NCBI GenBank assembly: GCA_963806435.1
Contig: CAWEBD010000113.1
Span: 3,520-67,519, forward strand
Length of the DNA: 64,000 nt
Direction of reading: 5' to 3'
From: an uncultured Bacteroidota bacterium
GTDB lineage: Bacteria > Bacteroidota > Ignavibacteria > Kryptoniales > JAKASW01
Both the position numbers and the translations under genes were made by a program. This document shows, in pieces, positions 785 to 19,340 of this stretch (positions within the stretch are counted from its first letter, which is position 1; every line of letters starts with the position of its first letter). A model generated the notes under the pieces. That model made no database searches. It saw only the letters and a program-made list of their open reading frames with translations, and had not been told where the DNA came from.

Positions 785-1070
785 CATCCCTCCAAATCCA
801 GCTGTCTGTCCAGCGTCCTGTACTGTATCGCTTCAGCTATATGTTCCGGCATTATATCATCATTGCCGGAAAGGTCTGCTATGGTCCTCGCGATTTTCAG
901 TATCCTGTCGTAAGCCCTCGCGCTCAAACCAAGTTTCGTTATCGCCTGCTTCAACAGGTCTTCTCCAGCTTTGTCTGCCTGACAGAATTCTCTTATCTCC
1001 TTGCTCTGTCCGTCCGCACATGCGTGCGGCCGGATCGCTCCGCGACATGTCGGCGTTCTTGAAGAGCTCC
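785..1070 (-). pseudogene. comM 3' fragment A (last ~85 codons, MELFKNADM...QLDLEG*), interrupted by a 37-nt hairpin-containing insert
   Basis: Nucleotide and protein similarity to the 3' end of the full comM at 17781-18040. The frame is broken by the insert at 1009-1045. It lies 25 nt downstream of the fragment B stop codon. Confidence 0.8.
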
Positions 1071-1099
1071 ATTTGCTGAGTGGATTTATGAGAGTTCCC

Positions 1100-1590
1100 T
1101 TATCCCTCCAGGTATAACTGCCTGTCGAGACTGCGGTATTGTATCGCTTCCGCTATATGCTCCGGCATTATGTCATCGCTGCCGGCAAGGTCGGCAATTG
1201 TTCTAGCAACTTTAAGTATCCTGTCGTACGCACGTGCGCTCAATCCGAGTTTGGTTATCGCCTGCTTCAGCAAATCTTCTCCGGATTTGTCCGCCTGGCA
1301 GAACTCCCTTATCTCCCTGCTCTGCATATCCGCATTCTTGAAGAGTCCTTTCCGGCCTTTGAACCTTTCCCTCTGAATCTCACGAGCTTTCTTCACTCTC
1401 GATCTCACAGCAGAAGATGGCTCTCCCGATTTCTTGCTCGAGAGCTCGGCATACTTCACTGCCGGCACTTCGACGTGTATGTCGATCCTGTCGAGCAGCG
1501 GCCCGCTTATCTTTGACATGTACCTCTGTATCTGCATCTGGTTGCAGCTACAGGTCGCATTCGGATTGCCGTAGTTTCCACAGGGACATG
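1100..1590 (-). pseudogene. displaced comM 3' fragment B (about 163 codons, PCPCGNYG... to LYLEG*)
   Basis: The 201-aa ORF 1100-1705 matches ComM residues from [15 protein letters not shown] to the stop. Similarity to the full gene ends abruptly after CCACAGGGACATGG near 1590. There is no AAA+ N-terminal part. Confidence 0.85.
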
Positions 1591-1610
1591 GCTGCGTTGC
1601 CATTCTGGAT

Positions 1611-2042
1611 GTGCGATTAAGAGCCAAAAAGCCGGTTTCCAAAGCGTACCCGAAGGGGCTCAGAACTATCGGCGACCACACTAGGAAACGACGGCTGGAC
1701 CTCAAGATGACCCAAAATCAAGTGGCAGAAGTCCTCGCAGTAGACGAAACCACCGTATGGAATTGGGAAAGTAACAGAACTGAGCCGCTCACCAAACACC
1801 TGCCGGCCCTTATTTCCTTCCTTGGGTATATTCCTTTTGAACCCACAGGAGCATCCCTAGACGAAAGGCTTCTTGAGTATCGTAGGCGATCCGGCCTCAG
1901 TCAGAAAAAGCTTGCAAGGGCGATAGGAATCGACCCGTCTACATTGAGCAGACTGGAGAAAAACAACCCAAGATGTTTCAACAAGGTTGTCAAAATGGCA
2001 GCCGATTTCCTCTGCAGGGCCAATCCGGGAGAAGATCAATAA
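1611..2042 (+). CDS. XRE-family transcriptional regulator with two tandem HTH domains (GTG start)
   Basis: 143 aa. The first HTH is LRTIGDHTRKRRLDLKMTQNQVAEVLAVDETTVWNWESNRTEP and the second is LLEYRRRSGLSQKKLARAIGIDPSTLSRLEKNN. A paralogous copy lies at 8086-8517. Confidence 0.8.
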   Translation: MRLRAKKPVSKAYPKGLRTIGDHTRKRRLDLKMTQNQVAEVLAVDETTVWNWESNRTEPLTKHLPALISFLGYIPFEPTGASLDERLLEYRRRSGLSQKKLARAIGIDPSTLSRLEKNNPRCFNKVVKMAADFLCRANPGEDQ

Positions 2043-2101
2043 TTCAACCGAGTGCGCCTCCCACGGCGCAGTAAAAGTGGTGAAACAAACCGTTAGATTA
2101 G

Positions 2102-2131
2102 ATTCCCGCCACGAAGCTTCGTGGCGGGAAT
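2102..2131. terminator. perfect 30-nt palindrome ATTCCCGCCACGAAG/CTTCGTGGCGGGAAT downstream of the XRE gene
   Basis: Inverted repeat read directly from the sequence. A homologous hairpin follows the second XRE copy (8579-8604). Confidence 0.5.
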
Positions 2132-2163
2132 CGTGATAATCTTACAATGACTACTTGAGTAGA

Positions 2164-2188: not shown

Positions 2189-2206
2189 CTCGCTCAAATG
2201 ATTCCA

Positions 2207-5200
2207 TCACTTGAGCAAAAGCATCTTCTTAGTAATGACATGATTTCCGGCGAACAGTCGGTAGAAGTACACTCCGCTTGCCAGACTTGAACCATTGAAG
2301 TTAACACTGTACCTACCAACCTGCTGGTCCTGATCGACAAGAGTCCTCACCTCCTGTCCCAGCACATCGTAGATCTTGAGGGTTACATGTGATTCCTTGG
2401 GGATCGTGTAGTCGATCACTGTCGTCGGGTTGAACGGGTTCGGGTAGTTCTGGCTGAGGACGAAGTCCTTAATCACCGTTATCGGTTCCAGCGAAAGCGA
2501 CTGGAGATTGTCAGATGCCGAGCTATCAACCTGGCTGTAACTGTTGATGAGCGCAAATTTCGGATCCGTCAGGTTCGAGCTTACGTCGATCTTTACCTTC
2601 ACGGTCCTGTTCGCGATGCCGTCGGTGCTGAGAAGATAGCTAGTCGGCTTGTACCCACCGGCATTGGATGCTTTTATCCTGATATTCTTAATCGTTCCCA
2701 CCAGCTTACCGGTAGAGTTGTCTATTACTTCCACGTTGTAATTGATATAGCCGGTGTCTCCCAATACCGAGATGGCCGCTGTGGAATCGGCAAACCCGCT
2801 GTATTCACTGAATATAATCCTGGAATTTGTGTTTACCTGGAACGGCTCGGTAACGAGGGACTTGTTCAGGTTTGAAAGACTGTCGTAGTCTGTGCTGTCC
2901 GAACAAGGGGCGAAGCCGATGCTCTGGCCATCCACGCTGAGGTTACGAAACGAATAGTAGAAGTTGAGGCTGTCGTAGCTTATCGTACCGCCTCTGCCGT
3001 AAGTCATCTTGACTGGAACACTTGCCACGGTATTGGCATTCCCGGCCGGACTGTTTCCCGCTCCGCTGATGCTCCCGGACGTCTCCAGGGGATATGGAGA
3101 GCTGCTCGGATTAAACGCGGAAGCATACATCGAGCTTGTGCTCGCCCCGTTACTGAGCTGCATATCCCTGCCCGTCGTGCTGAGCGTTATCATGCTTGAT
3201 GCGTTGTAGTTGCAGGCATAGGCGGTCCAGGAGTTCGATGCACTTGCCTGACTGAAAGCTATGTAGGGCGTGCTTCCGCCGTTCGGCAGATTAACCGATA
3301 CGGAGCTCTCGTTGTAATCTATCGTGTTATAATTCGAAGCTCCCGGCGCGGTGGAGAAGAGAGTGATATTCAGAGGCGGTCTGCCGAAGTTGTTTGCTAT
3401 CCAGCATACCCATGCGGTGCTGTTGGGTTCCTGCACAAGGGAAGGCTGATAGTTCGCGGGCCAGGCGCTGTTGGAAATTGTTATTGGAGTCGACTGGCCA
3501 AGTGTGTCCATCGTCGGGGTGTTTAAGGCAAGCTCGGCAAATCTTATTGTCGATGAACTGCCGCTTCCCTCCTGCCAGGCCACGTCTGCATATTCACCTG
3601 ACTGTGTCTTCGCCCCGTAAATTGAAGGTTTTGTAGAACTCGCATCTGTGTCCCACATGGAATATGCGGCCCCGTTTGATTGAAGCAGGCCGTTGAAAGT
3701 GCCGAAGAGATAATTTATTCCTGCCGTCTGGCTGCCGGAAGTGCTTTTCTTCTCGAATGCGATAAGCCAGAAGCCATTATACATCGCGAAGTCGGGATTT
3801 GCGTTCACTGAATACGAGTCAGAGCCTTCAGTGTAGATCGGGCCATCGGCATCCTGGATGTATGTGCTGCCAGAAGGAACAAACACGGCGTAATCTATTT
3901 GATAAGTTGATCCATATGGTTCCTGAAACACGACAATGACATCGCTGGATGACGGATCATAATCGAGAGACGGGCACTTGCTCCCATGGTCGGTGCCGTT
4001 CACAGGATTATAGTCGAGCGGCTCACCGTTGTTTGCGAGCGTCCAGGACGATCCCTGATTTGACGAATATTCCACCCAAACGTGACCATCGTCCGTATAG
4101 GCCTCGAACAGGTAACCGCTGGGAGTTTGTATCATCTTCCGCTGGCCGTTGTCGGAATAAGCCGAAGCATCCATCGAGTGCTGAAGCTCCTTGAGATTAG
4201 CAGACAGGCTTACATTGTCTGTCGGGTAATAGGTAACCGGATTAGAGTCACTCCCGAAGTTCCAGCCGGCAAATGCCCAGCCGCTGTTTTGCGGGACAGA
4301 TTGGAGAGTGATCGATGTTCCGAGATCAACCGGGATCGAGTTGCTCTGGCTGCCATTTATAAGATAGTAGGCTCCGCTGCCGCCGGCATCGATGTAGGTC
4401 GGGCCGGTGAGCGTGACGGTGGGCTGCTGGTTATAGCTTGCACAGTAAATATCTTCATTGGACCCGGATCTGAAATCTGTCCAGAGCGCATGGGCCTCGC
4501 CGCTGCCGCTTGACGTGACTCCAATATAGTCAGAAGTGAGACTGCCAACCGTTGGATTACTACTGACGGATGTCAACTTTACATCTTCACCGGTACCGTC
4601 TTGACCGACAAACGACTGGCCATCGTAAGACTGGGCAGAGTAGACATCAACCTCATCGTTGGCATTTTCTTGATAGTACAAAAGCGAGATATGTCCCGTC
4701 GAATTGATACTCAACCATGGAAAGAACTGGTTACCAGTCGTCGTCTGCGTTGCTACTTGCGGAGTGCTCCAACTGGTGATCTCCCTGGCTCCAGTCGTGT
4801 GTGTGAAGTAGATGTCCATGGTTCCGTTGTCTTCTTCCGTCCAGGCGACGTAGACTTCGCTGTTTTGAGGATCGACCGCGATTGTGGGGAAGGATGAGAC
4901 GCGAAGTTTGCCGATCAGCTGCTGATAATAGCCTGTGAAAGTTCTGACGGACTCGTCGCTGAAGTTATTGCCACCATCCGTCGACATTGCGACATCAATG
5001 TATGAAGTTCCACCAGTCGCATTCGAATCGTATGCTACGTAGACCGCGCCATTGGGGCCTACTGCCGGCACAGCACCAGTGATTAATTCGCTGTTATTCC
5101 CACTGATTATTTTCGACACCCATCCCCCGGATAGGTTGCTCTGGTCGATTGGAAAAGCGAAATAGACATGACTTCCGGATTTATTTGACAGAAGGTCCGT

Positions 5201-5750
5201 CCACGAAACGTACAGTTCTCCCAGCAGTTGAATCACCGCTGTTGTCCACTGCCATATAGGGCTTGTCTTCGAAATCGTTGGGGTTAACCGGGAAGGGGAC
5301 ACTCCAACTGAGGCCGTTATTGTCCGTGTATTCGATGTCCACCACACCGACCGAATAACCAGTTCCAAAGTAGTTGGAAGTTGTAATGTCCTTGTTCACA
5401 AAAGTATAGTACTCACGACCAGACGCGTCTATGGCGCATGAAGGATCGAAGCCGCCTTCATAAGATCCATTACTCGGATTAAGGCCGGATTGCAATATGC
5501 CCTGGTTGATCCATGAACTGCCGCCGTCGGTGGAAAACGCATATCCCGGCTGAGAGAAGCTGCCGTTGCTGAAATCGTTCCATGTTGCCATTAGAGTATC
5601 TGGCTTATTTGGATCCAGCGCTATCGATGTCTCGCTCTGGTCGCCGGAGCCAACGTCAACCGGAACGTTATTGAAAGTCTGTGCGTACCCGGCTGTGGAA
5701 ATAACCATGAGAATGCACAGCGTCATAAGACGGTTCTTTAGATACCTCAT
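2207..5750 (-). CDS. very large BNR/sialidase-like beta-propeller surface protein with a T9SS C-terminal sorting domain; reading frame broken near 5220
   Basis: ORFs 5181-5849 and 2207-5368 join as ...DNSGDSTAG/ELYVSWTDL if one base of a 3-nt run at 5220-5222 is removed. Signal peptide MRYLKNRLMTLCILMVISTAGYAQ starts at 5750. BNR-like motifs are present (FSTDGGSSW, MSTDGGNNF, SSNQGSSW). The C-terminus is NYPNPFNPTTVIDY...GVYFYRL. Confidence 0.75.
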
Positions 5751-5997
5751 TTTTCGTCCTTTCTCTAACTCTGTTTCTTGCAGATAGTTGTTCATGCATT
5801 CCCCCGAACGCTTGAGGTCCCGTCCACACCCCCCCAACCTTCTTGGCATATTATGTCCTTGGTCTCACTCTCCTTTTTGTGGCCTGTCTTGCGGAAGTCT
5901 GTTTTTCTTAATGTCCGATTTCTTTCTCTTTATTCTGAGCGTGCGAAACGCAATGATCGAAGTCTTGTTCCTCGGACTCGTTTGCCTGATCGAAAAA

Positions 5998-7236
5998 TCA
6001 TTTGACTACCAGGGTCAGGCTTTCGAATGGCTCCCACTTGAATCCGATACCGGATGTGTTACCACTACTAGGACCGACGATCTCCCCATTTGCCTCACTG
6101 AAATCAAATTGAAGGCCCAGATGATCCAAGAGGAAGGATGCGATGGTATCGTCTCCACTTATCGCATCTGTAAATATCAGTCCTTTAATAAGTCCATCGA
6201 GTCTCACACTACCTCCGAATGTCGTGTACGTCGGGATCTCTGGACCAGTTGCTGAACCGGCACGGAAGTAGAGGAATTGGCCGATCTGGACCTGCCATCC
6301 TTTTCCGATGCTGACGCCGCCGGTTGGCCTGCCCGCAAAAAGGTTGTCGAAGACGTTGAAACTGCCGAGCCCTTCATCGTACACACTTGTGTTAGTGCCG
6401 TTGAAGACGAGGGGCGCGTTGACTTGCCTGATCCATGTAAACGACAGCCAATTCCATCGATGGCCTGCCACGGATGTCTCCAGTCCGAATTGAAAATTCC
6501 AGCCGAGATCGCCTTCCCTAGGAAGACCCGGTAAACCACCGGGCGCGTAGTTTCCGAAATTTCTCTCCGAATAACCAAATGTCAGGTTGAGGATGGGTGT
6601 GGCACCAATAATAGAGCGCGTGAAACTTCCATCCGAATTCAGAATAATGTCCGCAACCGGTATCTGAAGTAGTGCTCCCCAATCAGGTGTATAAGTGGAT
6701 TTGTAGTAACCCCGGAACCGACCCGTTTCTTCTGTCGTTGCCCACTTGAAAGTATAGCCAAGGCCCAATTTTACAAAGTAGTCCACCCCTAGCGCGACTG
6801 TTACCCCGTTCGCAGCATCTGTCGTAACACTGTTCGCGAGGAGGGATTCCGCACCCCCGGAATATGCGTAATCGTAATTAGGATTAGAGTACCCAACTCC
6901 CAATCCAATTCTTACGGGAAACGTGTTCCATAAACTATGTAGGTCCATTCCGGCATTGACTGCGAACGCACCCAGCTGATTCGGGATCGTCGGCATGTAG
7001 CTGGCACCCAACATTCCGTGCAAGCTGAACAGCCCAAGCTCTGCCGGATTAGCGATAACTGCGAGGGCATTGTCAGACACAAAGGAAACTCCAGCCCCTC
7101 CCATGCCATTTGTCTCGGCAGATACCTGTGAGTAAAGTGAAACCTGAGAAGGATAAAGGGCGTTTTGAGCCCATCCCCTTCCGAGCGTACAAAAGACCGT
7201 TGTTAAAATAACAGCAGTTGTTCCTCTCAATCTCAT
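5998..7236 (-). CDS. outer-membrane beta-barrel protein, PorV/PorQ/FadL-like (tentative)
   Basis: Signal peptide MRLRGTTAVILTTVFCTLGRGWAQ preceded by GGGAGG. The N-terminal motif NGMGGAGVSFVSDNALAVIANPAELG is typical of this barrel family. The sequence shows an alternating beta-strand pattern and a C-terminal aromatic residue. Confidence 0.5.
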   Translation of the reverse strand: MRLRGTTAVILTTVFCTLGRGWAQNALYPSQVSLYSQVSAETNGMGGAGVSFVSDNALAVIANPAELGLFSLHGMLGASYMPTIPNQLGAFAVNAGMDLHSLWNTFPVRIGLGVGYSNPNYDYAYSGGAESLLANSVTTDAANGVTVALGVDYFVKLGLGYTFKWATTEETGRFRGYYKSTYTPDWGALLQIPVADIILNSDGSFTRSIIGATPILNLTFGYSERNFGNYAPGGLPGLPREGDLGWNFQFGLETSVAGHRWNWLSFTWIRQVNAPLVFNGTNTSVYDEGLGSFNVFDNLFAGRPTGGVSIGKGWQVQIGQFLYFRAGSATGPEIPTYTTFGGSVRLDGLIKGLIFTDAISGDDTIASFLLDHLGLQFDFSEANGEIVGPSSGNTSGIGFKWEPFESLTLVVK

Positions 7237-7518
7237 CTCCGTATCCTCCCTTTCCATTGAACCGCAATTCTGCGGGACTGTTTACATGGGGCGGTCCAGA
7301 CATTGCTCAAACGTCTCTGGACCGGTCGCCTAGTTTGTTATCGGTAAGCTAAGGGATACGGTGATACTCTTCCGTGTATATATATTTTTCTTCCGAATTC
7401 TTTTTCATCTTTCGCTCTCCTCTTTTCTCCCTTGGAACTAACGCTCCGTTTGCGTCATCGCTCCACGGCTTCGTCTGCGCAAAACTGAAAGGGCTGAGAC
7501 GTTACCGATGATGCTTGG

Positions 7519-7548
7519 ATTATATGCCCCCCCCCCTCAGAAAGTCAA
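7519..7548 (-). promoter_or_regulatory. sigma70-like promoter TTGACT-18 nt-TATAAT with a G10 tract in the spacer
   Basis: The minus strand reads CCTTGACTTTCTGAGGGGGGGGGGCATATAATCC. It lies 30 nt downstream of the comM' C stop and about 280 nt upstream of the gene starting at 7236. Confidence 0.45.
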
Positions 7549-7577: not shown

Positions 7578-8065
7578 TCATTCCAGATACAGCTGCCTGT
7601 CCAGCGTCCTGTACTGTATCGCCTCCGCTATATGTTCCGGCATTATGTCAGAACTTGCAGCGAGGTCCGCGATCGTCCTCGCAACTTTGAGAATCCTATC
7701 GTACGCCCTCGCGCTCAGTCCTAATTTCGTTATCGCCTGCTTCAGCAAGTCCTCTCCTCCCGCGTCGGGCTGACAGAACTCTCGTATCTCTTTACTTTGC
7801 ATATCTGCATTCTTAAAAAGTCCTTTTCTTCCTTTGAATCTTTCTCTCTGAATCTCTCTTGCCTTCTTCACTCTTGTTCTAACGGCTGAAGATGGCTCAC
7901 CAGATTTCTTGCTCGAAAGCTCGGCATACTTCACCGCCGGCACTTCAACATGTATATCTATCCTGTCGAGCAGCGGCCCGCTTATCTTCGACATGTACCT
8001 CTGTATCTGCATCTGGTTGCAGCTGCATGTCGCATTCGGGTTGCCGTAATTTCCACAGGGACACC
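7578..8065 (-). pseudogene. displaced comM 3' fragment C (about 163 codons)
   Basis: The 174-aa ORF 7578-8102 matches ComM from [16 protein letters not shown] to LYLE*. The junction position and flanking XRE sequence match those of fragment B. Confidence 0.85.
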
Positions 8066-8085
8066 CCTGCGTTGCCATTCTGGAT

Positions 8086-8517
8086 GTGCGATTAAGCGCC
8101 AAAAAGCCAGTTCCCAGGGCTTACCCGAAGGAGATCAGGACCATCGGTGACCATGTGAGGAGAAGACGCCTAGATCTGAAGATGACCCAAAAACAAGTGG
8201 CGGAAATCATCTCGGTGGACGAAAGCACCGTGTGGAATTGGGAAAGTAACAGAACTGAACCACTCATCAGGCATTTGCCGATTATATTTCTTTTCCTGGG
8301 GTACAGCCCCTTTAGTACGACCGGACAGTCCTTAGGGGAAAGGCTTCAGGACTACCGAAGGAAAACTGGCTTCAGCCGGAAAAAGGTCGCAAATGCGATT
8401 GGCACCGACCCAGGAACTTTGGGGAAGATTGAGAAAAACGACTCAGGATGCTCCCATAAGGTCATTAGAAAGGCAATCAATTTCCTGTCCAGAGCCGATT
8501 CGAGAAAAGATCAGTAG
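8086..8517 (+). CDS. XRE-family regulator with two tandem HTH domains (paralog of 1611-2042)
   Basis: 143 aa and collinear with the first copy. The start lies about 20 nt from the comM' junction. Confidence 0.8.
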   Translation: MRLSAKKPVPRAYPKEIRTIGDHVRRRRLDLKMTQKQVAEIISVDESTVWNWESNRTEPLIRHLPIIFLFLGYSPFSTTGQSLGERLQDYRRKTGFSRKKVANAIGTDPGTLGKIEKNDSGCSHKVIRKAINFLSRADSRKDQ

Positions 8518-8630: not shown

Positions 8631-9299
8631 TTACTTCAGCATCATCATCTTCATCACCTTACTCCAGTTACCCGCCGCGATACGGTAGAAATACACTCCA
8701 GATGCAACCTGCTCTCCATCCCTGTTCAAGCCGTTCCATGTCACCTCGTTGTACCCGGCATTGTAGCTCCTATCCGCGATCTGCGCCACTTCCCTTCCGA
8801 GAACATCGTAAATCGTCAGCATCACATGCGATGTCTTCGGAAGCTCGAACGCTATCTTCGTCGATGGGTTAAACGGATTCGGGAAGTTGTTGTAAAGCTT
8901 ATAGTCCTTCGGGGCTCCCACCGATACTGTAATGTCTTTGGTCCAGAGCTGGCCATCACTTGAACTTATCACCGCAGAGAGTGTTGTGTCCTTTCCGACA
9001 GGAGCTTTATTATCAACGGAGAATGTGAATTCAGCGTCTCCCGTGCTTTTTGCCTGGATACTTTTCAGCAGTACCGTGTTCGACTTGAACTCAAGCCATG
9101 ACGGGAGGTTCGTGAAGATCACCGAGACATTCTTTGCATCGATGGACGAATTGTTCTCCACGCTCAGCGATACGGTATTTCCCTCAGATCCGAACGCGAT
9201 TTGCCACCTCTGGCCCGATGCATTGTCGGCTGTCTGGGCAACCACGCTTCCTGCCAGAAATGCGCTGAGTATCAATACTACCCTCATTTTCCCAAGCAT
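8631..9299 (-). CDS. small secreted protein with a T9SS C-terminal sorting domain
   Basis: Signal peptide MLGKMRVVLILSAFLAGSVVAQ, with GGAGG upstream. The C-terminus is NNFPNPFNPSTKIAF...GVYFYRI. Confidence 0.75.
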   Translation of the reverse strand: MLGKMRVVLILSAFLAGSVVAQTADNASGQRWQIAFGSEGNTVSLSVENNSSIDAKNVSVIFTNLPSWLEFKSNTVLLKSIQAKSTGDAEFTFSVDNKAPVGKDTTLSAVISSSDGQLWTKDITVSVGAPKDYKLYNNFPNPFNPSTKIAFELPKTSHVMLTIYDVLGREVAQIADRSYNAGYNEVTWNGLNRDGEQVASGVYFYRIAAGNWSKVMKMMMLK

Positions 9300-9682: not shown

Positions 9683-11185
9683 TTACCTCTTGTCCCTACG
9701 ACCTCCCCCATGTCCTTCGTTACTCCTCTCCGGCAGCCTGACTACCAGATATTCAGCATTGAACTTCAGCGACAGGTATCCCTGGCTCGTTATCATCGGT
9801 TCCTCCCCGCGCTTCACAAGCTTAGCGCTCAGGTTGTTCAGAAGCTCAACCTCCAGAACGAATATCTCCAGGTTCCTCCGCGCCACAACAGAGTCTCCGT
9901 GGTCAAGTGCTCGCTTGGCCATGTCCAGTCTTCTATCCAGTACTTCCACTATTCCATTATTCCAATCGTGGTCAAAGTTCCAATTCCTGTCTGGTCCCCA
10001 TTTCCCATAATTCCTGAATTCTCCTTCCTTGTACCAGTCATTCCCTCTCATCATCTCGTCGATGTCATGGCCACGGTCTCTATCGTCTCTAAGCCAGCCT
10101 TTTGCTACTGCCTGGTGCTTCAATGAGATGAGGGTGTCAAGCAAAGCATTTGTAGGTGTGACTACCGTATCACTGATTGCCACGGCCTGGTTGGTGGAGT
10201 CGTTGTAATAATAAAACATTTGCGGATAATTGGTGAATGTTAGGATCTTGCCACCCGAAGGAAGAGACAAACGCTGGGTAAGTTTGCCTGTCGACGCATC
10301 AAAAACATAAACAGTGCCGGGATATTCGTCGTACCCTTCGTGAGCCGCAGAATCGGTTATGATGGGAATCCGCCTGTTGAGAATAACGTGTTTCCCATCG
10401 GCAGATAAGTAACCATCCGCAATCCATGGAAATGCAAAAGGAGTATATACGAGCCCTTGATCTACATTGCAGACAACATATTTCTGGTTTTTATATCCTG
10501 CTGGTCTTTCATATTCAACCAGATCAAGACCGTTCTTAGCATCACTTATACCTGGCTCAAAAGCAAAACTCCCCAAGGACGTAACTTTCTTGTCTGGGAG
10601 TCTCTTATTTGCAATGATGTCCCAAGCACGAAAGACCAACCCGTTGGAATCTGAAATGGAAATGTAAGCTTTAGATTGATCTTGAGAGATACATATCGGT
10701 TCGTACGAATATAATTCTGTCAATGTGTCTATTGGTTGAAGCGTCGTATTATCGAATACAATGGTTTTCTGATAATAATCGGATGAACCTATGGACACAT
10801 AAAATCGGTTTGTCATTGGCGTGAATATTACTTGATAAACCCATGCATCTCTTTCAAAGAGGACGGTCCTCTTATTGGCATTATTCAGGTCTACCATAAC
10901 AACCTGGCTGCGATTTTGCAGAATTAACCTGCTCTGATCCGGCGAATCGAACATTTGTGTGATTCTGCCTGCATCCTTAAGAATCAACTCGGAAATTCCA
11001 TTTGTCAAATTTTGCCTGTATATGTCAACGCTATAACCGCCGCCAGTATAATTGGGGTCGTCAAGGTAGTAAAAGCGATACGGCTGCGAACGAGCGGTCC
11101 CTGCAACAAGAAGAACAATCGCCACCGCCGCCCAGTAAATCTTGCGGGAGTGAGATATGTCTCTATCCACAGGCAAAGTCTTCAT
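9683..11185 (-). CDS. secreted beta-propeller-like protein with a conserved ~165-aa helical C-terminal domain (paralog 2)
   Basis: N-terminal hydrophobic signal or anchor. The C-terminal third is nearly identical to that of the upstream paralog. The ATG at 11185 is preceded by AGAGGTGAG. Confidence 0.65.
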   Translation of the reverse strand: MKTLPVDRDISHSRKIYWAAVAIVLLVAGTARSQPYRFYYLDDPNYTGGGYSVDIYRQNLTNGISELILKDAGRITQMFDSPDQSRLILQNRSQVVMVDLNNANKRTVLFERDAWVYQVIFTPMTNRFYVSIGSSDYYQKTIVFDNTTLQPIDTLTELYSYEPICISQDQSKAYISISDSNGLVFRAWDIIANKRLPDKKVTSLGSFAFEPGISDAKNGLDLVEYERPAGYKNQKYVVCNVDQGLVYTPFAFPWIADGYLSADGKHVILNRRIPIITDSAAHEGYDEYPGTVYVFDASTGKLTQRLSLPSGGKILTFTNYPQMFYYYNDSTNQAVAISDTVVTPTNALLDTLISLKHQAVAKGWLRDDRDRGHDIDEMMRGNDWYKEGEFRNYGKWGPDRNWNFDHDWNNGIVEVLDRRLDMAKRALDHGDSVVARRNLEIFVLEVELLNNLSAKLVKRGEEPMITSQGYLSLKFNAEYLVVRLPERSNEGHGGGRRDKR

Positions 11186-11190
11186 ATATC

Positions 11191-12645
11191 TCACCTCTTG
11201 TCCCTGCGACCTCTTCCACTTCCTTCACTATGCCTCTCCGGCAACCTGTCTATCACATATTCGGCATTGAACTTCAACGACAGATATCCCTGGCTCGTTA
11301 TTACCGGCTCCTCTCCGCGCTTCAAAAGCTTAGTGCTCAGGTTGTTCAGAAGCTCCACCTCCATCACGAATATCTCCAGGTTCCTTCGGGCCGTAACTGA
11401 GTCCCCACGATCAAGCGCTCGCTTTGCCATGTCCAGTCTTCTATCGAGCACTTCCACTATTCCCTCATTCCAATCGTGATCGAACTTCCAGTCTTTCCCA
11501 ACTTCCCAGCTTCTGAACTTCTTAAATTCTCCTTCCTTATACCACTCGTTCCCTCTCATCATCTCGTCGATGTCGTGGCCGCGGTCCCTATTGTCTCTAA
11601 GCCAGCCTTTTGCCACGGCCTGGTGCTTTAAGGATATGAGCGTATCGATCAGAGCATTCGGCGGTGTGACTACAGTATCACTGATGGCAATCGCCTGGTT
11701 TGTAGAGTCGTTGTAGTAGTAGAGCATCCTGGGATAGTTGTCAAAGGTGAATATTTCCCCATTAGGAGGTAGAGTTAAGCGCTGCATGAATTCGCCCGTC
11801 GAAGCATCAAATACATAAACAATACCGGTATAGTACTCCCCACCAGCAAGAGCTGTATCATAATTTACTTGTTCAAGAATTGCGTACTTACCGTCCGAGG
11901 ACAAGTATCCTTTAGAACGCCACGGAAAAGCGATTGGACTAAAGGTAGTGTTTTTATCGACATCGCAAAGGACATATTCCACGCCGCTGAAGTCGTTCCT
12001 GGCATTATCTTCATAACTCACTAGAGCCAGACCGTCCTTGGCGTCGTTTAATATAACGAATGACTCGACGGGCACCATGGTACCACAACGCCGGGGCAAT
12101 TCACTTTCTTTACTACTGATGATATACCTTGAGAACAATATCCCTGTGGAATCCGGTTGAAAACGGTAGATGGTTTTATTGTCCTTGGAACAAAAAGGGT
12201 TATACTGAAAGCTTTCACCGATTGTATCGAGCGGTTGCATTGTCGAGCGATCAATGATAACTGTTTTTGTGCTATCCTGCTCGTCATCAAACGTAATGAA
12301 ATACCGGTTAGTTTGAGGTGAATCTTTTATCCCGTCAATTTCATTGACGCCGCTCAACAGTTCTCTCTCATGACGGGATGGATCGCTCACATCCATAGCA
12401 ACAAGTGAAAATCTAACCTGGAAGAATATCTCAGATTGGTTGGTGTTAGAAAATATTCTGCCATTAACCCGTCCTACATTCTTCGCAAATAGCGCATTGC
12501 TATTCGTGGATAAGTTGAGTCTATAAATATCTCCGCTATAGCCAGGCACATCGTAATCCGGATTATAGGCAAAGTAATAATAATAGGGCTGCGAATAAGC
12601 TATCGAACTAACGGCAAAAGCTAGTAACGCTATTCTTGTTATCAT
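11191..12645 (-). CDS. secreted beta-propeller-like protein with a conserved helical C-terminal domain (paralog 1)
   Basis: Signal peptide MITRIALLAFAVSSIAYSQ with GAGGAG upstream. It shares the C-terminus ...NYPRMLYYYNDSTNQAIAISDTVVTP...LDRRLDMAKRALD... with 9683-11185. Confidence 0.65.
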   Translation of the reverse strand: MITRIALLAFAVSSIAYSQPYYYYFAYNPDYDVPGYSGDIYRLNLSTNSNALFAKNVGRVNGRIFSNTNQSEIFFQVRFSLVAMDVSDPSRHERELLSGVNEIDGIKDSPQTNRYFITFDDEQDSTKTVIIDRSTMQPLDTIGESFQYNPFCSKDNKTIYRFQPDSTGILFSRYIISSKESELPRRCGTMVPVESFVILNDAKDGLALVSYEDNARNDFSGVEYVLCDVDKNTTFSPIAFPWRSKGYLSSDGKYAILEQVNYDTALAGGEYYTGIVYVFDASTGEFMQRLTLPPNGEIFTFDNYPRMLYYYNDSTNQAIAISDTVVTPPNALIDTLISLKHQAVAKGWLRDNRDRGHDIDEMMRGNEWYKEGEFKKFRSWEVGKDWKFDHDWNEGIVEVLDRRLDMAKRALDRGDSVTARRNLEIFVMEVELLNNLSTKLLKRGEEPVITSQGYLSLKFNAEYVIDRLPERHSEGSGRGRRDKR

Positions 12646-12668
12646 ATATAACTCCTCGCAAATTTTGA

Positions 12669-14833
12669 TTACCAATCGCTTGGTGGCCGGTTGCTCATCA
12701 CCTCATTATATATATTTATCGCAGGTCCACCGTAATCTCTTCCATAGCCACCTTTAGCTTTAGGCTTCCCCAGGTTGGGATCTTTTTGCCAACTCCCCCC
12801 ACCCCTGTTGGGATCGGCAGGCACCCAAATCCAATAATGATATCCATTATATAGTTGAAAGGCGTCCGTCAGGAATTCCTGTCTAGTAAAGTTTGTCGCA
12901 TAACGGTATGCACCACCTTTTCTTCTCACTTTCGAGGGATACTTTGTCGCGAGGTTTTCCTTCTTTGCGAAGCGAGACTGGCCTTCCTTTGCGTTCGCTT
13001 TCCAATCCCAGACCTCCTCATTGTTGTCCGGCGGGTCCAGCTGCATCAGACCATATCCATGCGGAGCACCGAATATAGGGAAACTCTTGTCGTCCCGGAA
13101 TTGCCTGAATCTGCTTTCCATATACGCAATAACCTGTTCTTCAACAGTGAGTAACGCCTTGACTGCCGTCCTGTCAGGATTGTCTCCCTTAATTACAAAT
13201 CCATGATTCACGGTTTTATCATAAACTTTTCCACTTGCTGTAGCTGTCACATCAAGCGTGATTTCATCTCCGCCCCGTATCATCTTGTCCCAATCAATTG
13301 GCCATGAACTTACATTTGAGTATTCCGCGGTCGTATTCCCATGAAAAGAATCGTCAAACTTCCTGCCGTCGGGACCTTCCCACTGCACTCGCAGATTCCA
13401 TTCGAAATTCACTGTGCCACCATTGTAATTCTCGAGTCGGGCTTGAGGTGTAATGTCCGGCATCTTCGGATCTTTGGTAATGTCTTTCTCGTCTTTAAGT
13501 TCATCGGTCGGGTACACCACTACCAATGTGGGAGAGCCCCCTTTCACAACCAATGTCCCTTTTCCGGTGAGAGTCGGCTTGTCGACGGCGTCGACGGTGA
13601 AGTTGATCGTCGCGTTCGTATCTGTCGGCGTGCCGTCGGCAGTGTAGTATACCAGTCCGGCGTTTGCATACCAAAACGGGACCTCCGTGCTATCCTCGGT
13701 TGCCGAAGTCAGCTTAACGGACTGCATGTTCCCTGCGACTTCCGGAGTGCCGGTCTCGAGCGCCGTGCCCGACACCTTATGAGCGTTCCTCCCCGGATGC
13801 TTTGCCTTCATGGCTGCGCTCGGAAGAAAATAGTAAAGATGACCGTACTGCGACGGCGATGTGTATATCTTCACATAACCGTCGTAATAGATGCTCTGGT
13901 TGTACGCATCCTCCGCATCTGCATATATCGTAGACGATGCCGAGTCTTCTATCGTGTCGGGCAACGGGTGAACGGCAAAGTGATCGAGTCCGGCAAAGAC
14001 CTCTGCCGAGTCAGTCTCGGTCATGCCGTTGCTTTCCGCTTCTACCGTCACCCAATCACCTGTAGAATCCGGAACGGCGCCGTGCGCGACAAGCGAGTAC
14101 TCGCCGATTTCATCCCCGAGCGTCGTTATGCTTGAACCCAAGTCCGTCACCATCCCTGTCTGAGGATCCTTTTTGTGGAACGATACAAACCTGCTTCCCG
14201 AAATGACCGTCAACGTGACCGGGTCGGTGTGCGGTGACCAGACCGTGTTGCTCGTATCGTAGACCGATGCGAGCGCCATCCCTGTCGAGTCGCCGGACAT
14301 GAACTCGTTCGTCCCGACCGAAAAAGAGAATTTCGACACATATGGGGTGGTGAATGTTGCTCCGTCTTCGAAATACCAGGCATAATGCCAATCGCCGACA
14401 TGTGCTGTCCCTGAACTGCTGTCGACCAGGGAATCGTCAAGGTATATATAGTAGCTGTAAGGGGCCTGTGAGGAATAGTTCCAATAAAGGGCAGGCAATA
14501 TTTGATATTGATTGGGTTTCAGTCCGTGTATTACGATCGTGATCGAACCTGACCCGGAGTAGACGTGGTATCGAATTCATAATTGCCGTCGTAGAGGTAT
14601 ACATTATGGATTTCCAGCTTGCCCGAATCCTGCGTGGTCCAATTGAACCGGACACGGAGCGTATGCGTGTTAACTGTAGCAATGCTTAACCGCTTCTGTT
14701 GCAGAGGGGATATGGAAACCGTCTCTTGAATGTGAACCTGCGCCATCGCGTGCATGAAAGTGACACAGACCATGAAACCCGAAGCTATCTACCAGGTAAC
14801 ACCCATCTGTCGAAGTTTTCTCCCGATACCCAT
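12669..14833 (-). pseudogene. secreted ~720-aa protein with a C-terminal lytic-transglycosylase (SLT/lysozyme-like) motif; in-frame TAG at codon 15 plus one frameshift
   Basis: The ATG at 14833 has AAGGAG 5 nt upstream. The predicted signal peptide is MGIGRKLRQMGVTW*IASGFMVCVTFMHAMA, with the TAG at 14789-14791. The frame changes between 14577 and 14531. The C-terminal motif is YMESRFRQF...GAPHGYGLMQLD. Confidence 0.6.
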
Positions 14834-15139
14834 ACTTCTCCTTCTCTTCCCTTGCTCCGCCAGCACTTATCTGTGTTTCCGCGGCGTTTTCCCTCCGCCG
14901 CACCCGGCATCTTTTTTCGAAGTTAATTCGCCACTCTTGGGAATCCAAATGATTTTTCTGAGGTGAGACCTGCGTCACACGCGCGTTGGTTCTTTTCGGC
15001 AGTTGGGAACTTCACATCGTATAAACCTACTGCTTCGTATGAGGCTGCTATACTTGTCGGCAGGCCCTAAGCCTCTTAAAGAGCAAATCGATTCCGAGTT
15101 TTCTTCGTCGCTTACCTCAAGACCGGCTCAAACGGCTCT

Positions 15140-15243
15140 ACCCCTCCAGGTACAGCTGCCTGTCCAGCGTCCTGTACTGTATAGCCTCGGCAATATGTTC
15201 CGGCATGATATCGCCGCTGCCGGGAAGGTCCGCTAGCGTTCCG
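15140..15243 (-). pseudogene. comM 3' fragment E (last ~33 codons)
   Basis: About 100 nt are similar to the extreme 3' end of comM (…[22 protein letters not shown]). Similarity is lost abruptly near 15243. Confidence 0.7.
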
Positions 15244-15448
15244 CCCAGGCTGAATTTCCGGTCCAATCGGCCCCACCAATGACTCTTTGCTTTGTCTGCG
15301 TGAGTCTAAAAAAGTTGGATTCGAGGGCGCCCGTGTTACTATTCTCAAGATGATCGCCGACGCGAAGAACAAGCCGCTGAAGACGATAATCAAGAGGAAA
15401 ATTCAGGGGGGCTGCTAGAGGCGCAGTCGGGAACTCAAAGGGAAGAAT

Positions 15449-15545
15449 CACACAGAGTGACACGGAGAAAAGACAGAGTTCCACAGAGAAGAAGGCTATT
15501 CTCGGTGTCTCTCTCTTTATTTCCTCCGTGGAACTCTGTGAAATA
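15449..15545. repeat. REP/MITE-like inverted-repeat element (CAGAGTTCCACAGAG ... CTCCGTGGAACTCTG)
   Basis: Inverted repeats at 15474-15488 and 15524-15538. The architecture is the same as the elements at 28933-29136 and 49930-50075. Confidence 0.5.
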
Positions 15546-15594
15546 TTGTTCAAGCTAGTTCCCAGGCACGTCTCTAAAAACGGATGATACCAGA

Positions 15595-15620
15595 AGAGTC
15601 CCGTCAAAAGACGGGACTCT
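15595..15620 (-). terminator. hairpin AGAGTCCCGTC-loop-GACGGGACTCT after the gene 15647-17020
   Basis: Inverted repeat about 27 nt downstream of the stop codon. There is no long U tract. Confidence 0.4.
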
Positions 15621-15646
15621 CTGTTAAACGGATATATACCGAGCTC

Positions 15647-17020
15647 TTATTTGATGAGCATTAATTTCTTCGTCTCAACGAAGTCTCCCGACTGCATCCT
15701 ATAGAAGTATACTCCGCTGGGAAGATTATGCCCGTTGAACACGACGGTTTTATCGCCGATGGCCTCATCTCGGTCGACGAGCGTGGCTACCTTCCTTCCA
15801 AGTATGTCATATACTGTTATCGTCACATGTGTAACAGGCGACCACGGTGAGGATACTTCGTACGGGATTGTAGTGGTCGCGTTGAACGGGTTCGGATAAT
15901 TTTGTCCAAGTTCAAGTGCAAAGAACGGAAATGCTACGTTCCACGCCTCATTCGAGACATGGCTCTCTACCCCATCGCTATCCACAGCACTTATCCAATA
16001 AGCGTATGCAAAACCGTTCTGAACTGTGCTATCAATGTATGCGGTCGTGCCGGCCGCCACCGAATCGATAACTGAGGCTCTGGCCAGATCACCGTACCCC
16101 CGGTCATACGGACCATCCCGATAAATTCGATACCTCTCCACGTTCGAACTCGAACTTGGCAGCCAGCCGAGCTTGATTTTCCGCGGAATATCTTCGCCAT
16201 TGTCGCAGTGTATCAGCTCGGGTATCCCCGGCGTCTCTCCAATGTCGATTTCATAGATCCTCGGTCCGCCGACCCCTGCCATATCGACAGCCCACAAGTA
16301 ACCTTTAGCTATCGCGAGTCCAGTTAACGGCCCCCTGAACGGAAGATCACTCCTCGGTAAATCCAACTCATAAAGAATATGACTGGCGGTGTCTATCTTG
16401 AATATGTATCCGTTATTGTCATCGCAATACCAGAGATTTCCCCGATGATAAACCAGACCGTTGATATTTCCCGTCGGCGGAGGAAAGGAATCTATCACGG
16501 CTCCATTATTGGGACTGGCTTTGTAAATCATACTCTTCTGTCCAGCAGGAGAAGCAAAACATACATTTGTACCATAGTACAAGTTTCTCCCGTCCCACGC
16601 TATCCCTGCCCAATAACAAGAGCCAACCGCTGGAACATAATTCAGGACCTGTCCGTCAGTAGACATACGAACTATACTGCAATCGTTATGGGTCGGATAA
16701 AGACTTCTGACCCAGAGGTTAGTTCCATCCCAAGCAATTCCGTCAGGACTTTCAGTCGGCGATGGAATTGAGTCAGTTACCTTGTGTGTCAATATGTCCA
16801 CCCTATAGACTCGCTGAGGCCCATAATCCAATGCTCGATTTGGAATCCAGAATGAGGTACCATCTGAACAGATACCGTCAGGCAGTGGAATCGGAATGAG
16901 GAAATTATCAACGACATTACCGATGCGAGAGGTTTGCGCCTCGGCTACCGTTGTAGTGATAAAACCGGAGACATTAAGGATCAACAATAGCCAATAAACG
17001 GATAGCTTTGCCAAATATTC
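15647..17020 (-). CDS. secreted beta-propeller (NHL/YncE-like) plus FN3-like protein with a T9SS C-terminal sorting domain
   Basis: Signal or anchor sequence MEYLAKLSVYWLLLILNVSGFITTTVAEAQ. The C-terminus is NYPNPFNATTTIPY...GVYFYRM. Confidence 0.75.
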   Translation of the reverse strand, partial: EYLAKLSVYWLLLILNVSGFITTTVAEAQTSRIGNVVDNFLIPIPLPDGICSDGTSFWIPNRALDYGPQRVYRVDILTHKVTDSIPSPTESPDGIAWDGTNLWVRSLYPTHNDCSIVRMSTDGQVLNYVPAVGSCYWAGIAWDGRNLYYGTNVCFASPAGQKSMIYKASPNNGAVIDSFPPPTGNINGLVYHRGNLWYCDDNNGYIFKIDTASHILYELDLPRSDLPFRGPLTGLAIAKGYLWAVDMAGVGGPRIYEIDIGETPGIPELIHCDNGEDIPRKIKLGWLPSSSSNVERYRIYRDGPYDRGYGDLARASVIDSVAAGTTAYIDSTVQNGFAYAYWISAVDSDGVESHVSNEAWNVAFPFFALELGQNYPNPFNATTTIPYEVSSPWSPVTHVTITVYDILGRKVATLVDRDEAIGDKTVVFNGHNLPSGVYFYRMQSGDFVETKKLMLIK

Positions 17021-17406
17021 CATTCTTAATGTGCGCTCGTAATACAAGACCGAATCGCCCGTTTGCAGCCTCACTTCACCTATCTCTCCTCGTCCTTCTA
17101 AAATCTCATTCTGTTCAAACTGAATTGGAGCAAAGAACAGCAGACCGGTCCACGGTCAGTGTCCACACTCTCGCTTTGATTTTGGGAACCCATTCCCCTT
17201 TGAGCACGACGTTCTCGCACTATTCCAGCCCTTCAATTTGTCCTGATCGATCTAACGACTGCTTCCAAGCCCCCTTTACTAGACGCAGCTCAAGTCTTGA
17301 TAACTAGACAGTCCCACGCAGAGGTCACTTCTTGTCCTACTAAAGAATCGTTCCCTTGAATTTGCATACCCGGTCCGCCAATCACCGGCCCTGAAACACC
17401 GCAGGC

Positions 17407-17436
17407 AAAATATCCCCCCCCCCATCATAAAGTCAA
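17407..17436 (-). promoter_or_regulatory. sigma70-like promoter TTGACT-18 nt-TATTTT with a G10 tract in the spacer
   Basis: The minus strand reads CTTGACTTTATGATGGGGGGGGGGATATTTTGCC. It is homologous to 7519-7548 and lies about 30 nt downstream of the comM' D stop. Confidence 0.4.
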
Positions 17437-17464
17437 GTCGTTGAAAGAAACTTCTTGGATGGTT

Positions 17465-17751
17465 TCATCCCTCCAGATATAATTGCCTATCCAGCGTCCT
17501 GTATTGTATCGCCTCCGCAATATGTTCCGGCATTATGTCTCTGTTACCGGAAAGATCAGCGATCGTTCTCGCGACTTTCAGTATCCTGTCGTACGCTCTC
17601 GCACTTAATCCGAGTTTTGTTATCGCCTGTTTCAACAAGTCTTCTCCAGATTTGTCCGCCTGACAGAACTCCCGTATCTCCTTGCTCTGTCCGTCCGCAC
17701 ATTTGTGCGGCCGGATCGCTGCGCGACATGTCCGCATTCCTGAATTGGTCC
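17465..17751 (-). pseudogene. comM 3' fragment D (last ~85 codons) with the same 37-nt insert as fragment A
   Basis: The 90-aa ORF ends ...[74 protein letters not shown]. The insert is at 17690-17726. The fragment lies 44 nt downstream of the intact comM stop. Confidence 0.8.
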
Positions 17752-17780
17752 ATTTGCCAAGTGATTCTGTGAAAGTCCCC

Positions 17781-19340
17781 TTATCCCTCCAGGTACAGCT
17801 GCCTGTCCAGCGTCCTGTACTGTATCGCCTCTGCTATATGTTCCGGCATGATATCGCCGTTGCCGGCAAGGTCAGCGATTGTCCTCGCAACCTTCAGTAT
17901 CCTATCGTAAGCCCTTGCGCTCAGCCCGAGTTTCGTTATCGCCTGTTTCAACAAATCTTCTCCAGCTTTGTCTGCCTGACAGAATTCTCTTATCTCCTTG
18001 CTCTGCATATCCGCGTTTTTGAAAAGGCCTTTCCGCCCTTTGAACCTTTCCCTCTGAATCTCTCGTGCCTTCTTCACTCTCGATCTCACCGCAGAAGACG
18101 CCTCGCCTGACTTCTTACTTGACAGCTCGGCATATTTCACTGCCGGCACTTCGACGTGTATATCTATCCTGTCGAGCAGCGGTCCGCTTATCTTCGACAT
18201 GTACCTCTGTATCTGCATCTGGTTGCAGCTGCATGTCGCATTCGGATTGCCGTAGTTTCCACAGGGACATGGGTTCATCGCGGCGAGAAGCATGAACATC
18301 GAAGGATAATCGATCGAAAGCTTGGTCCGGCTTATTGTCACATGCCCGTCCTCCATCGGCTGCCGGAGAACTTCCAGTACACTTCTGTCAAATTCCGGAA
18401 GTTCATCGAGGAACAGCACCCCGTGGTGCGCGAGTGAGATTTCCCCCGGCTTGGGAATGGTCCCGCCGCCTACCAGCGCGCTGTCCGAAATTGTATGATG
18501 CGGTGAGCGGAACGGCCGCGTCGCAACAAGTCCAGCGTCAGACGGCAGCAACCCCGCAACGGAATGTATCTTGGTGGTCTCCAATGCTTCTTCGAATGTC
18601 ATGTCCGGCAGAATAGTCGGGAGCCTTTTCGCAAGCATCGTCTTCCCGCTTCCCGGCGGACCTATCATGATTACGTTATGTCCACCCGCCGCCGCAACCT
18701 CGAGTGCGCGTTTCACATTCTCCTGACCTTTCACATCCGAGAAATCAAACTGATATGCCTGAGTCTGACCGAATAATTCCTCCTTGTCTACCCGAAAAGG
18801 TTCGAGGAGTTTGTATTCCCCGCCGAGGAGATGCACCGCCTCCAGGAGAGTCTCCACCGGATAAATGCTGACTCCCTCGACCATCGCGGCTTCCCTGGCG
18901 TTCCCTTTCGGAATGATCATCGCGGGTATTCCCCTGTCTCTCGCCTCCACAGCGATCGGCAGTACTCCGTGCACGGGTCTGACCGATGCGTCAAGCGCGA
19001 GCTCGCCCAGGACTATGAACTTACCGAGGTCGGTTTGATCTACCGCCCCGGAAGCGGCAAGTATGCCGACGGCAATCGGGAGGTCGAACGCGCTTCCCTC
19101 CTTCCTCACGTCGGCCGGAGCGAGGTTTATGACGATCTGGTGCCCCGGATACTTCAAATTCGAGTTTTTTATGGCCGTGAGCACCCGTTCGCGGCTTTCC
19201 TTGACCGCGTTATCCGGGAGTCCAACCATATACCACGCGAAAAGTCCCCCGCCGACATGCGTCTCGATCTCGACCATGAAGGCGTTGACGCCGTAAGTTG
19301 CCGCGCTCATAACATGCGAAAGCATCATGCCCCCCGACAT
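17781..19340 (-). CDS. comM: Mg-chelatase-like AAA+ protein ComM/YifB (intact)
   Basis: 519 aa with Walker [16 protein letters not shown], the zinc-ribbon-like motif [15 protein letters not shown] and a ChlI C-terminal domain. The true start may be a few codons downstream. Confidence 0.9.

Follow-up and report, generated by a model that had tools for sequence, protein, structure and literature searches.

Tandem islands behind an intact comM gene

We examined a 64,000-nt stretch from an uncultured bacterium of the Kryptoniales (GenBank contig CAWEBD010000113.1; hereafter the window), in which the gene comM is followed on its 3′ side by two tandem islands, each closed by a regulator gene of the XRE family and an additional copy of the comM 3′ end. 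The region is probably the footprint of widespread elements that carry a large serine recombinase (LSR) gene at one end and an XRE gene at the other and insert in comM, and the islands would be non-autonomous derivatives of such elements. comM itself is intact and encodes 519 amino acids (aa), with the Pfam domains ChlI, Mg_chelatase and Mg_chelatase_C (17781..19340, − strand). Its terminal ~490 nt, here called copy A, are present twice more in the same orientation, as copy B (7578-8065) and copy C (1100-1590). Shorter comM 3′ copies were detected at 17465-17751, 785-1070 and 15138-15263 (repeat search and tblastn), the last being a degraded relic inside the cargo of island 2 (tblastn). Read from comM, the array comprises the comM 5′ part, the attachment site attB, copy A, a short fragment, a promoter, cargo 2, XRE2, attR and copy B; past copy B follow a promoter, cargo 1, XRE1, attR, copy C, a short fragment and a promoter. 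The segments derived from comM are the following:

17781..19340, − strand: intact comM; codons 1-353 resident, copy A taken as imported from ~120 nt past the att core
17465..17780, − strand: 28-nt spacer, conserved linker and short comM 3′ fragment (codons ~434-520); probable relic of a second, older junction
7578..8063, − strand: copy B, codons 358 to stop, a displaced former comM end (tblastn, dN/dS, alignment)
1100..1588, − strand: copy C, the most distal comM 3′ copy (tblastn, dN/dS)
720..1099, − strand: short comM 3′ fragment (785-1070) with its spacer and linker, followed by a promoter-like site (748->720)

All comM 3′ copies were compared pairwise and gave dS values of 0.9-1.4 with dN/dS of only 0.02-0.06 (Nei-Gojobori), and neither frameshifts nor stops were present in the compared parts of any copy. 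Given this high dS combined with very low dN/dS, we infer that until recently these comM 3′ ends belonged to functional comM genes of different lineages. Copy C is presumably the oldest displaced end. Within the intact gene, the G+C content at third codon positions (GC3) was 0.67 in the 5′ part, 0.69 in the first 125 nt after the att junction, and 0.61 in the remainder. A previous reading of this DNA, made from its letters alone (the sequence-only reading), had reported three long direct comM ends together with shorter pieces, and had argued that each copy diverged while still functional, in a lineage of its own, and not by duplication in place; we recovered all of these copies, and the dN/dS of ~0.03 agrees with that argument. 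Its picture of two successive islands, each behind a foreign comM 3′ end that keeps comM intact, also holds.

The long and short comM pieces lie together in a duplicated 809-nt module (783-1591 vs 17464-18272, 85.7% identical), the second instance of which consists of copy C and segment 720..1099. The short pieces begin at about codon 434, and after codon 441 both have the same 37-nt insertion, with GCGGAC direct repeats on either side and a CCGCAC-N4-GTGCGG hairpin inside it (1018-1099, 17705-17780). The last 45 nt of the linker are 91% identical between the two modules, with adjacent synonymous sites near saturation. This conservation suggests a second junction type near codon 434, and a second recombination system may act on comM at the linker. 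We rejected the linker and hairpin as a structured RNA or an attC-like site, since folding z-scores (-0.3 to -0.8) were no better than those of shuffled sequences.

A site-specific junction between comM and XRE genes

The sequence CCACAGGGACA was located at 8053-8063 and 1578-1588, where the comM similarity of copies B and C ends, and at 18259-18269 within comM. Beyond this common end point, which the sequence-only reading had already noticed, both copies enter homologous XRE genes whose start codons lie ~20 nt further on in both islands. XRE1 and XRE2 encode 143 aa each with a double helix-turn-helix (HTH) and share 64% aa identity.

The search for XRE homologs returned 1221 proteins at E<=1e-10, and in most of the loci retrieved (numbered with L) the homolog lies head-to-head with a comM 3′ fragment. 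Such loci were found in close relatives (L002, L010-L012), in metagenome-assembled genomes (MAGs) of Planctomycetes (L004) and Aminicenantaceae (L013), and in L006 and L014-L019. The comM fragment starts at codon 354 according to tblastn, and at codon 358 in L016; in L013 the start is degraded and the first matched codon is 363. At the retrieved loci the far side of the fragment adjoins core genes, and the cargo on the XRE side differs among loci (kinases, a TonB receptor, mer and czc operons, proteins of the type IX secretion system, T9SS). The motif (C/T)TGCGTTGCC(A/T)TT is present between the comM homology and the XRE start at all loci, with 1-2 substitutions in L013 and L016, and positions 5-6 of the 10 nt preceding it are invariably CA. 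As judged from these alignments, the boundary between XRE and the comM fragment is a site-specific recombination junction, nucleotide-exact across phyla.

Related elements provided the remaining site types. All four types align on a central CA, and the hybrid junctions have only a short core in common (slash placed after the CA):

attB (window, + strand): GGGACA/TGGGTTCATCGCGGCGAGAAGCAT
attR (window, twice): GGGACA/CCCCTGCGTTGCCATT
attL (L020): ACCTCA/CGGATTCATAGCAGCGAGAAGCAT
attP (L003): TCCTCA/TCCCTGCGTTGCCATT

The sites of the window are located as follows:

18245..18292: attB within comM; central CA at 18268-18269 (+), corresponding to the TG of the first Cys codon of NPCPCG (alignment with attL, attP and attR)
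8040..8085: attR of island 2; comM-derived half, CA at 8062-8063, element half-site TGCGTTGCCATT at 8068-8079
1565..1610: attR of island 1; CA at 1587-1588, half-site at 1593-1604

The half-sites of both attR copies are perfect. Outside the window, attR was found at no fewer than 10 loci of other phyla. In L003 the attP is a perfect palindrome, AATGGCAACGCA-TCCTCATCCC-TGCGTTGCCATT (12-N10-12), situated between the 3′ end of an LSR gene and an XRE gene; by its sequence, this is the form expected of attP. Aligned in this way, the sites place the crossover at the CA, i.e. the TG of the first Cys codon of comM. The XRE–comM′ junctions of the window are thus very probably attR sites of an LSR, and the islands LSR-less derivatives. 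The sequence-only reading had taken the same junction for the attP of a circular element: its site-specific nature stands, and is nucleotide-exact across phyla, but the junction is best taken as an attR, and attP as the palindrome between LSR and XRE in L003.

We also considered the half-site as an operator of the XRE gene only, and rejected it, because this leaves unexplained both the comM homology that ends exactly 10 nt away in every phylum and the matching attL. Two loci showed XRE genes in other settings: in L009 (100-170) two XRE-type genes stand head-to-head around an imperfect palindrome, GGCAAAATCGCCACGCA-N10-TGCGTTGCCATTCTG, with comM or LSR sequence absent between them, and L016 contains a second XRE gene without a comM fragment. 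The XRE proteins had no match in IMG/VR, the PLSDB plasmids or the GenBank phages, and the attP palindrome had none in viral contigs; the elements are not represented in IMG/VR, PLSDB or the GenBank phages.

A large serine recombinase family directed to comM

An element that we take as complete was read from its LSR end in the relative L020, which is syntenic with the window over comM, glnS, gltX, an NtrC-like regulator, a histidine kinase, metX and metY (72% nt identity). Its comM is truncated at residue 352 and convergent with an LSR gene (10001..11533; Resolvase and Recombinase domains), behind which we identified genes for a TrwB-like ATPase, DUF932, a PDDEXK nuclease, SymE and ankyrin proteins. 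In L003, two elements are apparently in tandem, with attP between them. No virion genes were found in 10 kb of L020, nor in L003 or L004. As in L020, complete elements of the family split comM. The gene-restoring behaviour proposed in the sequence-only reading applies to the islands, which keep comM whole, but not to complete family elements, which disrupt it. As that reading had anticipated, the comM locus is polymorphic among relatives: L002 and L010-L012 have the same cassette architecture as the window with different cargo and order, whereas L020 has a complete element and a split comM.

With the LSR of L003 as query, 1741 proteins were retrieved at E<=1e-20 (59-77% identical to the query), spread over Ignavibacteria, Planctomycetes, Chloroflexi, Acidobacteria, Armatimonadetes, Deltaproteobacteria and other groups. 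The C-terminal tails were analysed in the best 120 clusters, and in 104 of these they read past the att core into antisense comM. Five of the 120 clusters end in a tail (..ATQPH/ and 12 further residues) that corresponds to the antisense comM strand of the window in one frame, and 99 in a tail of the form ..N(F/L)x(D/G)S.., which is antisense comM in another frame (comM ..AAMNP). The codon of the junction residue x is expected to be A-N-G, N being the complement of the third position of the Pro codon in ..MNP..; the residue was R, T, M or K in 97 of the 99 tails, as predicted from CA/NGG. Three LSR tails were attP read-throughs into the second half-site or into XRE. On the evidence of these tails, target specificity for the comM Cys codon is common to the LSR family. 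One open reading frame (ORF), P0202, on a 1927-nt JGI contig, fuses the LSR C-terminus to a complete comM 3′ end that runs the same way as the LSR. Its half-site is separated from the CPCG codons by ~13 extra nt, and its orientation is opposite to that of all other junctions seen.

Within the window, the Pfam search detected no recombinase, transposase or relaxase in 1-18.3 kb, in line with the sequence-only reading, and tblastn with the family LSR and the element-body proteins found no relic of either in the whole 64 kb.

Two further observations concern L003. The LSR frame crosses the attP palindrome into XRE without a stop (9053-10450; two independent contigs open, a third with a stop). An LSR-XRE fusion protein made only in the excised form is conceivable but was rejected as unsupported: the ORF is continuous in P0121 and P0164, stops in P0128, and the frames differ. 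The read-through is probably incidental. A second, unrelated LSR gene (15454-17005) and a tRNA-Glu gene on the other strand overlap at the 3′ end of the tRNA gene; the element next to this LSR gene encodes a TrwB-like ATPase and a DNA methyltransferase.

Cargo, regulators and promoters of the islands

The cargo of both islands consists of proteins with a T9SS tail and other secreted-looking proteins, and its GC3 (0.49-0.63) is below that of the core genes (0.67-0.71). The features of island 2 are:

8631..17074, − strand: cargo of island 2 (Pfam Por_Secre_tail, tblastn, repeats; GC3)
15647..17074 and 8631..9299: T9SS-tail proteins (Pfam Por_Secre_tail)
9683..11194 and 11191..12675: paralogs
12669..14498: 609-aa protein
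8086..8517, + strand: XRE2, double-HTH CI/C2-like regulator at the distal end of the island (Pfam HTH_3 twice; PHROG repressor families; P22 C2)
17407..17436, − strand: weaker sigma-70-like promoter with G10 tract (17414-17423), facing the island 2 cargo; homologous to 7519-7548

The features of island 1 are:

2207..7257, − strand: cargo of island 1 (Pfam, ORFs, nt comparison)
5998..7257: 419-aa protein
5181..5849: 222-aa protein
2207..5368: 1053-aa T9SS-tail protein
1611..2042, + strand: XRE1, then a 32-nt perfect palindrome at 2101-2132
7519..7548, − strand: sigma-70-like promoter (TTGACT-18-TATAAT) with G10 tract (7527-7536), facing the island 1 cargo

The gene for the 1053-aa protein has 81-86% nt identity to cargo that adjoins XRE in L002 and L011. 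The tandem paralogs of island 2 (9680-12675; 503 and 494 aa) have their 3′ ends in common (~650 nt at 80% identity), and a 54-nt repeat, 89% identical, lies just 3′ of the first of them (9486-9682 region). The XRE genes gave dN/dS values of 0.13-0.38.

The G10 tracts at 7527-7536 and 17414-17423 are the only homopolymer runs of at least 8 nt in the window. Both are on the comM strand, where each forms part of a sigma-70-like promoter spacer shortly past a comM 3′ copy, and from this placement they look like slipped-strand phase-variation switches for surface proteins. Homologous sigma-70-like promoters follow copy B and both short comM fragments, and the DNA after the surrogate comM ends looks, by this similarity, like the native downstream region of comM.

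Expression of the displaced comM′ as a stand-alone protein beginning MATQ and continuing to CPCG, for example a ComM inhibitor, was also rejected: its ATG is AAG in L014 and L015, and 'MATQ' is the half-site translated in the comM frame. Such a protein, though conceivable in this lineage, is not needed as an explanation.

A shared identity block and the origin of the islands

Copies A, B and C are 94-97% identical at positions 12-124 after the att junction, with identical runs of 35-62 nt, and 80-85% identical beyond position 125. L002 and L010 have their own lineage-specific version of this block (92.7% identical to each other), and between lineages the identity of the block (83-87%) is no higher than that of the remainder. 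The block of copy A has core-like GC3 (0.69 vs 0.61 in the rest), and an internal deletion of the comM fragment in L010 begins at the same point as the block end. This ~110-nt pattern points to homologous recombination, with hitch-hiking on a complete element as the alternative.

The known productive reactions of serine integrases are attP x attB, and attL x attR with a directionality factor (phiC31, Bxb1, A118). We followed these combinations within one molecule, between molecules and between sister chromosomes; they lead to clean insertion, clean excision or tandem elements with attP between, and none of them duplicates the comM 3′ end. An origin by LSR reactions only was thus rejected, and the first unit of comM 3′ end, cargo, XRE and attR needs a non-LSR event.

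In the origin that we favour, the islands would retain the cargo, the XRE gene and attR of an element whose LSR end was lost and replaced by the comM 3′ end of an earlier host and its downstream DNA; with such a foreign end in its place, comM reads through and the previous end is pushed downstream. The preferred founding step would be an aberrant excision, resembling specialised transduction, that takes attR with the adjacent comM 3′ DNA and loses the LSR end. The resulting molecule could then insert by a single RecA-type homologous crossover in the conserved block, which yields one intact comM (resident block and imported rest) and one 5′-truncated copy behind the island. Later block-to-block recombination may remove, re-create and reshuffle islands. 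We put the chance that homologous recombination in the block was the main route at a little short of even. Accretion is a less likely route: a complete element would enter attB, giving attL on one side and several attR downstream, excision via the distal attR would carry the islands along, and after a later excision via the proximal attR the islands would stay in place and comM would be whole again.

Some points weigh against the interpretation of the region as the footprint of LSR-XRE elements. There is no complete element beside the islands in this window, so accretion is not observed; the founding event is a reconstruction; the identity block could stem from gene conversion after LSR-made breaks and not from integration crossovers; and the ORF P0202 fits the scheme only as a variant of flipped polarity.

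The best surviving rival, unlikely in our estimate, is that the islands are dead relics. LSR elements would have inserted twice, and comM would have been repaired by uptake of the intact comM of a relative, with homology on the comM 5′ side and illegitimate joining within the element, so that the LSR end was deleted and cargo, XRE and attR were stranded as immobile islands. Known processes suffice for this, and it explains why the LSR is lost, comM is intact, the 3′ ends are foreign and the DNA downstream looks native; the degraded internal relic at 15138-15263 shows decay, and comM being a competence gene, its repair would restore transformation. However, the same rare event would have to have happened two or more times in this window and also, with different cargo, in the L002/L011 lineage, the XRE genes and att half-sites are without decay, and the identity block implies ongoing exchange between the copies. 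Taken by itself, the view that the islands are now fixed relics is equally improbable.

More doubtful is a true satellite, an updated form of the model in the sequence-only reading, in which a circle of comM′, cargo and XRE would recombine through its XRE–comM′ site with the attB of comM, using an LSR in trans and swapping the resident 3′ end. This explanation fits the architecture exactly, the attR half-sites and CA core are perfect and XRE is under purifying selection, and L002 and L010-L012 repeat the arrangement of the cassette around other cargo. In P0202, moreover, the LSR lies directly upstream of the comM 3′ end, as expected of a gene-restoring element. On the other hand, attR x attB is not productive according to the biochemistry of phiC31, Bxb1 and A118, the complete element of the relative does not restore comM, and the ~110-nt intragenomic identity block and its sharp end are left unexplained. 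To our knowledge, serine integrases are not known to recombine an attR-type site with attB. We hold it slightly more doubtful still that the islands are working satellites of the LSR family moved by LSR-catalysed exchange of an attR-type site with attB, possibly licensed by XRE. If they were, the last 167 codons of comM would be swapped for the island's own copy, and comM would be an integron-like, gene-sparing capture platform for T9SS surface proteins with phase-variable (G10) promoters.

Local tandem duplication of the comM 3′ region with divergence in place and no mobile element, which the direct repeats in a single orientation would suit, is refuted for practical purposes by a junction that is nucleotide-identical in other phyla and by dS of ~1 and dN/dS of 0.03 in copies that cannot all function in place, and is further opposed by the LSR attL in a relative and by cargo GC3 below that of core genes.

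Other features of the window

We identified a separate integrative element of ~11.4 kb (37889-49376) between two tRNA-Thr(CGT) genes (37889-37961 and 49304-49376). It contains a DnaB-like helicase (41651..43150), a 770-aa tape-measure-like protein (39342..41654) and a tyrosine integrase (48160..49329) that abuts the second tRNA-Thr gene and is the only recombinase gene of the window. This integrase was rejected as the missing recombinase of the islands, since it sits between the two tRNA-Thr copies as part of its own element. A SAM riboswitch (28609-28744) was found upstream of genes for O-acetylhomoserine sulfhydrylase and homoserine O-acetyltransferase (27184..28518, 26047..27168). The Rfam search of the whole window returned the two tRNAs and the SAM riboswitch only, and nothing in 1-790. 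Finally, neither strand of positions 1-784 has a credible ORF and Rfam gave no match there, and the strong promoter-like site at 748->720 faces this region, which could be a degraded gene or an undescribed RNA.

Significance of comM as a target

comM is needed for natural transformation, and insertion normally knocks the gene out. In this lineage, element cargo is repeatedly kept while an intact comM is regained; cargo can thus outlive the integrase without that cost to the host. The annotation 'ATP-dependent protease' is often given to ComM/YifB. In a survey of site-specific LSRs, 12.4% targeted homologs of one gene so annotated (10.1101/2021.11.05.467528). We infer that this gene is comM, and comM is probably among the most frequent serine-integrase targets. 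The clean cross-phylum set of attP, attB, attL and attR sites for a very large LSR family (~1,700 protein clusters) is also a potential integrase tool.

Comparison with known systems

The sequence-only reading had regarded the islands as a recombinase-less system that it could not match to a described one. This did not hold, as we found a large LSR family dedicated to this comM codon, and sr1WO prophages, cis-mobilizable elements (CIMEs) and pseudo staphylococcal cassette chromosome (ψSCC) arrays are already described. A consistent set of attP, attB, attL and attR is present, as in LSR elements generally; a recombinase lies beside the att site in L020 and L003, and none does in the 64-kb window.

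Several systems share single traits with the locus. The AbaR-type islands of Acinetobacter (AbaR/Tn6022), named in the sequence-only reading, also use comM as a hotspot, and complete elements likewise disrupt it, but they are Tn7-like, with tns genes and a 5-bp target duplication, none of which is present here. Our search for Tn7-like genes gave only a weak, HTH-only match of XRE to the TnsD profile (E=0.007, Pfam), and the repeats are of 100-490 nt and not of 5 bp as in Tn7-like insertions. Nor is the locus an integron: an IntI gene is absent, and 1-21 kb contained no inverted repeats of at least 40 nt. In phage 21 and e14 of E. coli, the element inserted in icd brings a diverged, mostly synonymous 3′ end and displaces the old one. 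There too the target gene stays functional with a replacement end; however, these elements are autonomous, use a tyrosine integrase and have the replacement end as part of attP, whereas the attP of this family is without comM sequence. The sole tyrosine integrase of the window (48160..49329) belongs to the tRNA-Thr element 30 kb away.

The accreting islands of streptococci and staphylococci are closer. CIMEs, known beside streptococcal integrative and conjugative elements, are att-bounded islands without recombination or transfer genes that accrete to such an element and can leave with it (PMC5704250, PMC7563491). The islands of the window similarly lack such genes, and their boundaries are attB/attR or attR/attR pairs of the LSR family. 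CIMEs differ in using tyrosine integrases and short repeats at the fda 3′ end, whereas the left boundary here is an attB inside an intact gene and not an attL, and the autonomous element beside the islands is not seen in the window. In SCC and ψSCC at rlmH of staphylococci, too, LSR-type recombinases (Ccr) insert DNA at the 3′ end of a conserved gene and leave that gene intact; ψSCC also share the tandem arrays bounded by target repeats, in which some units have no recombinase (10.1101/336396; PMC7029136). The SCC repeat is of ~15-20 nt at the very end of rlmH, so that a real surrogate coding sequence is not needed; here, unlike in SCC, the site is 167 codons before the stop, complete elements split the gene, and islands carry a replacement of ~490 nt. 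SCC is defined by Ccr recombinases and the rlmH/orfX target, and the target here is comM. By analogy, the islands function like SCC but are not a member.

The nearest described complete element is sr1WO, a group of prophages of phage WO in Wolbachia that have an LSR at one end and HTH_XRE genes at the other, and that integrate in the host Mg-chelatase (comM/YifB-type) gene and leave gene halves on both sides (PMC9203015). The combination of LSR, terminal XRE and Mg-chelatase target matches at family level. sr1WO is, however, a full prophage with its target left split, whereas the window has only LSR-less islands and an intact comM; the elements of the relatives have the TrwB-like ATPase, DUF932 and PDDEXK nuclease, with virion genes not seen. 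The best matches of the LSR in the phage collection were ~29% identical (<30%), and no WO phage was among the best 25 of 353 records. We have not seen described an LSR family with a target-free attP that splits comM together with integrase-less descendants that carry a 167-codon gene end and are stacked with the gene kept whole. The separate parts are already known, namely LSR elements in Mg-chelatase/comM genes, CIMEs, ψSCC arrays and replacement gene ends.

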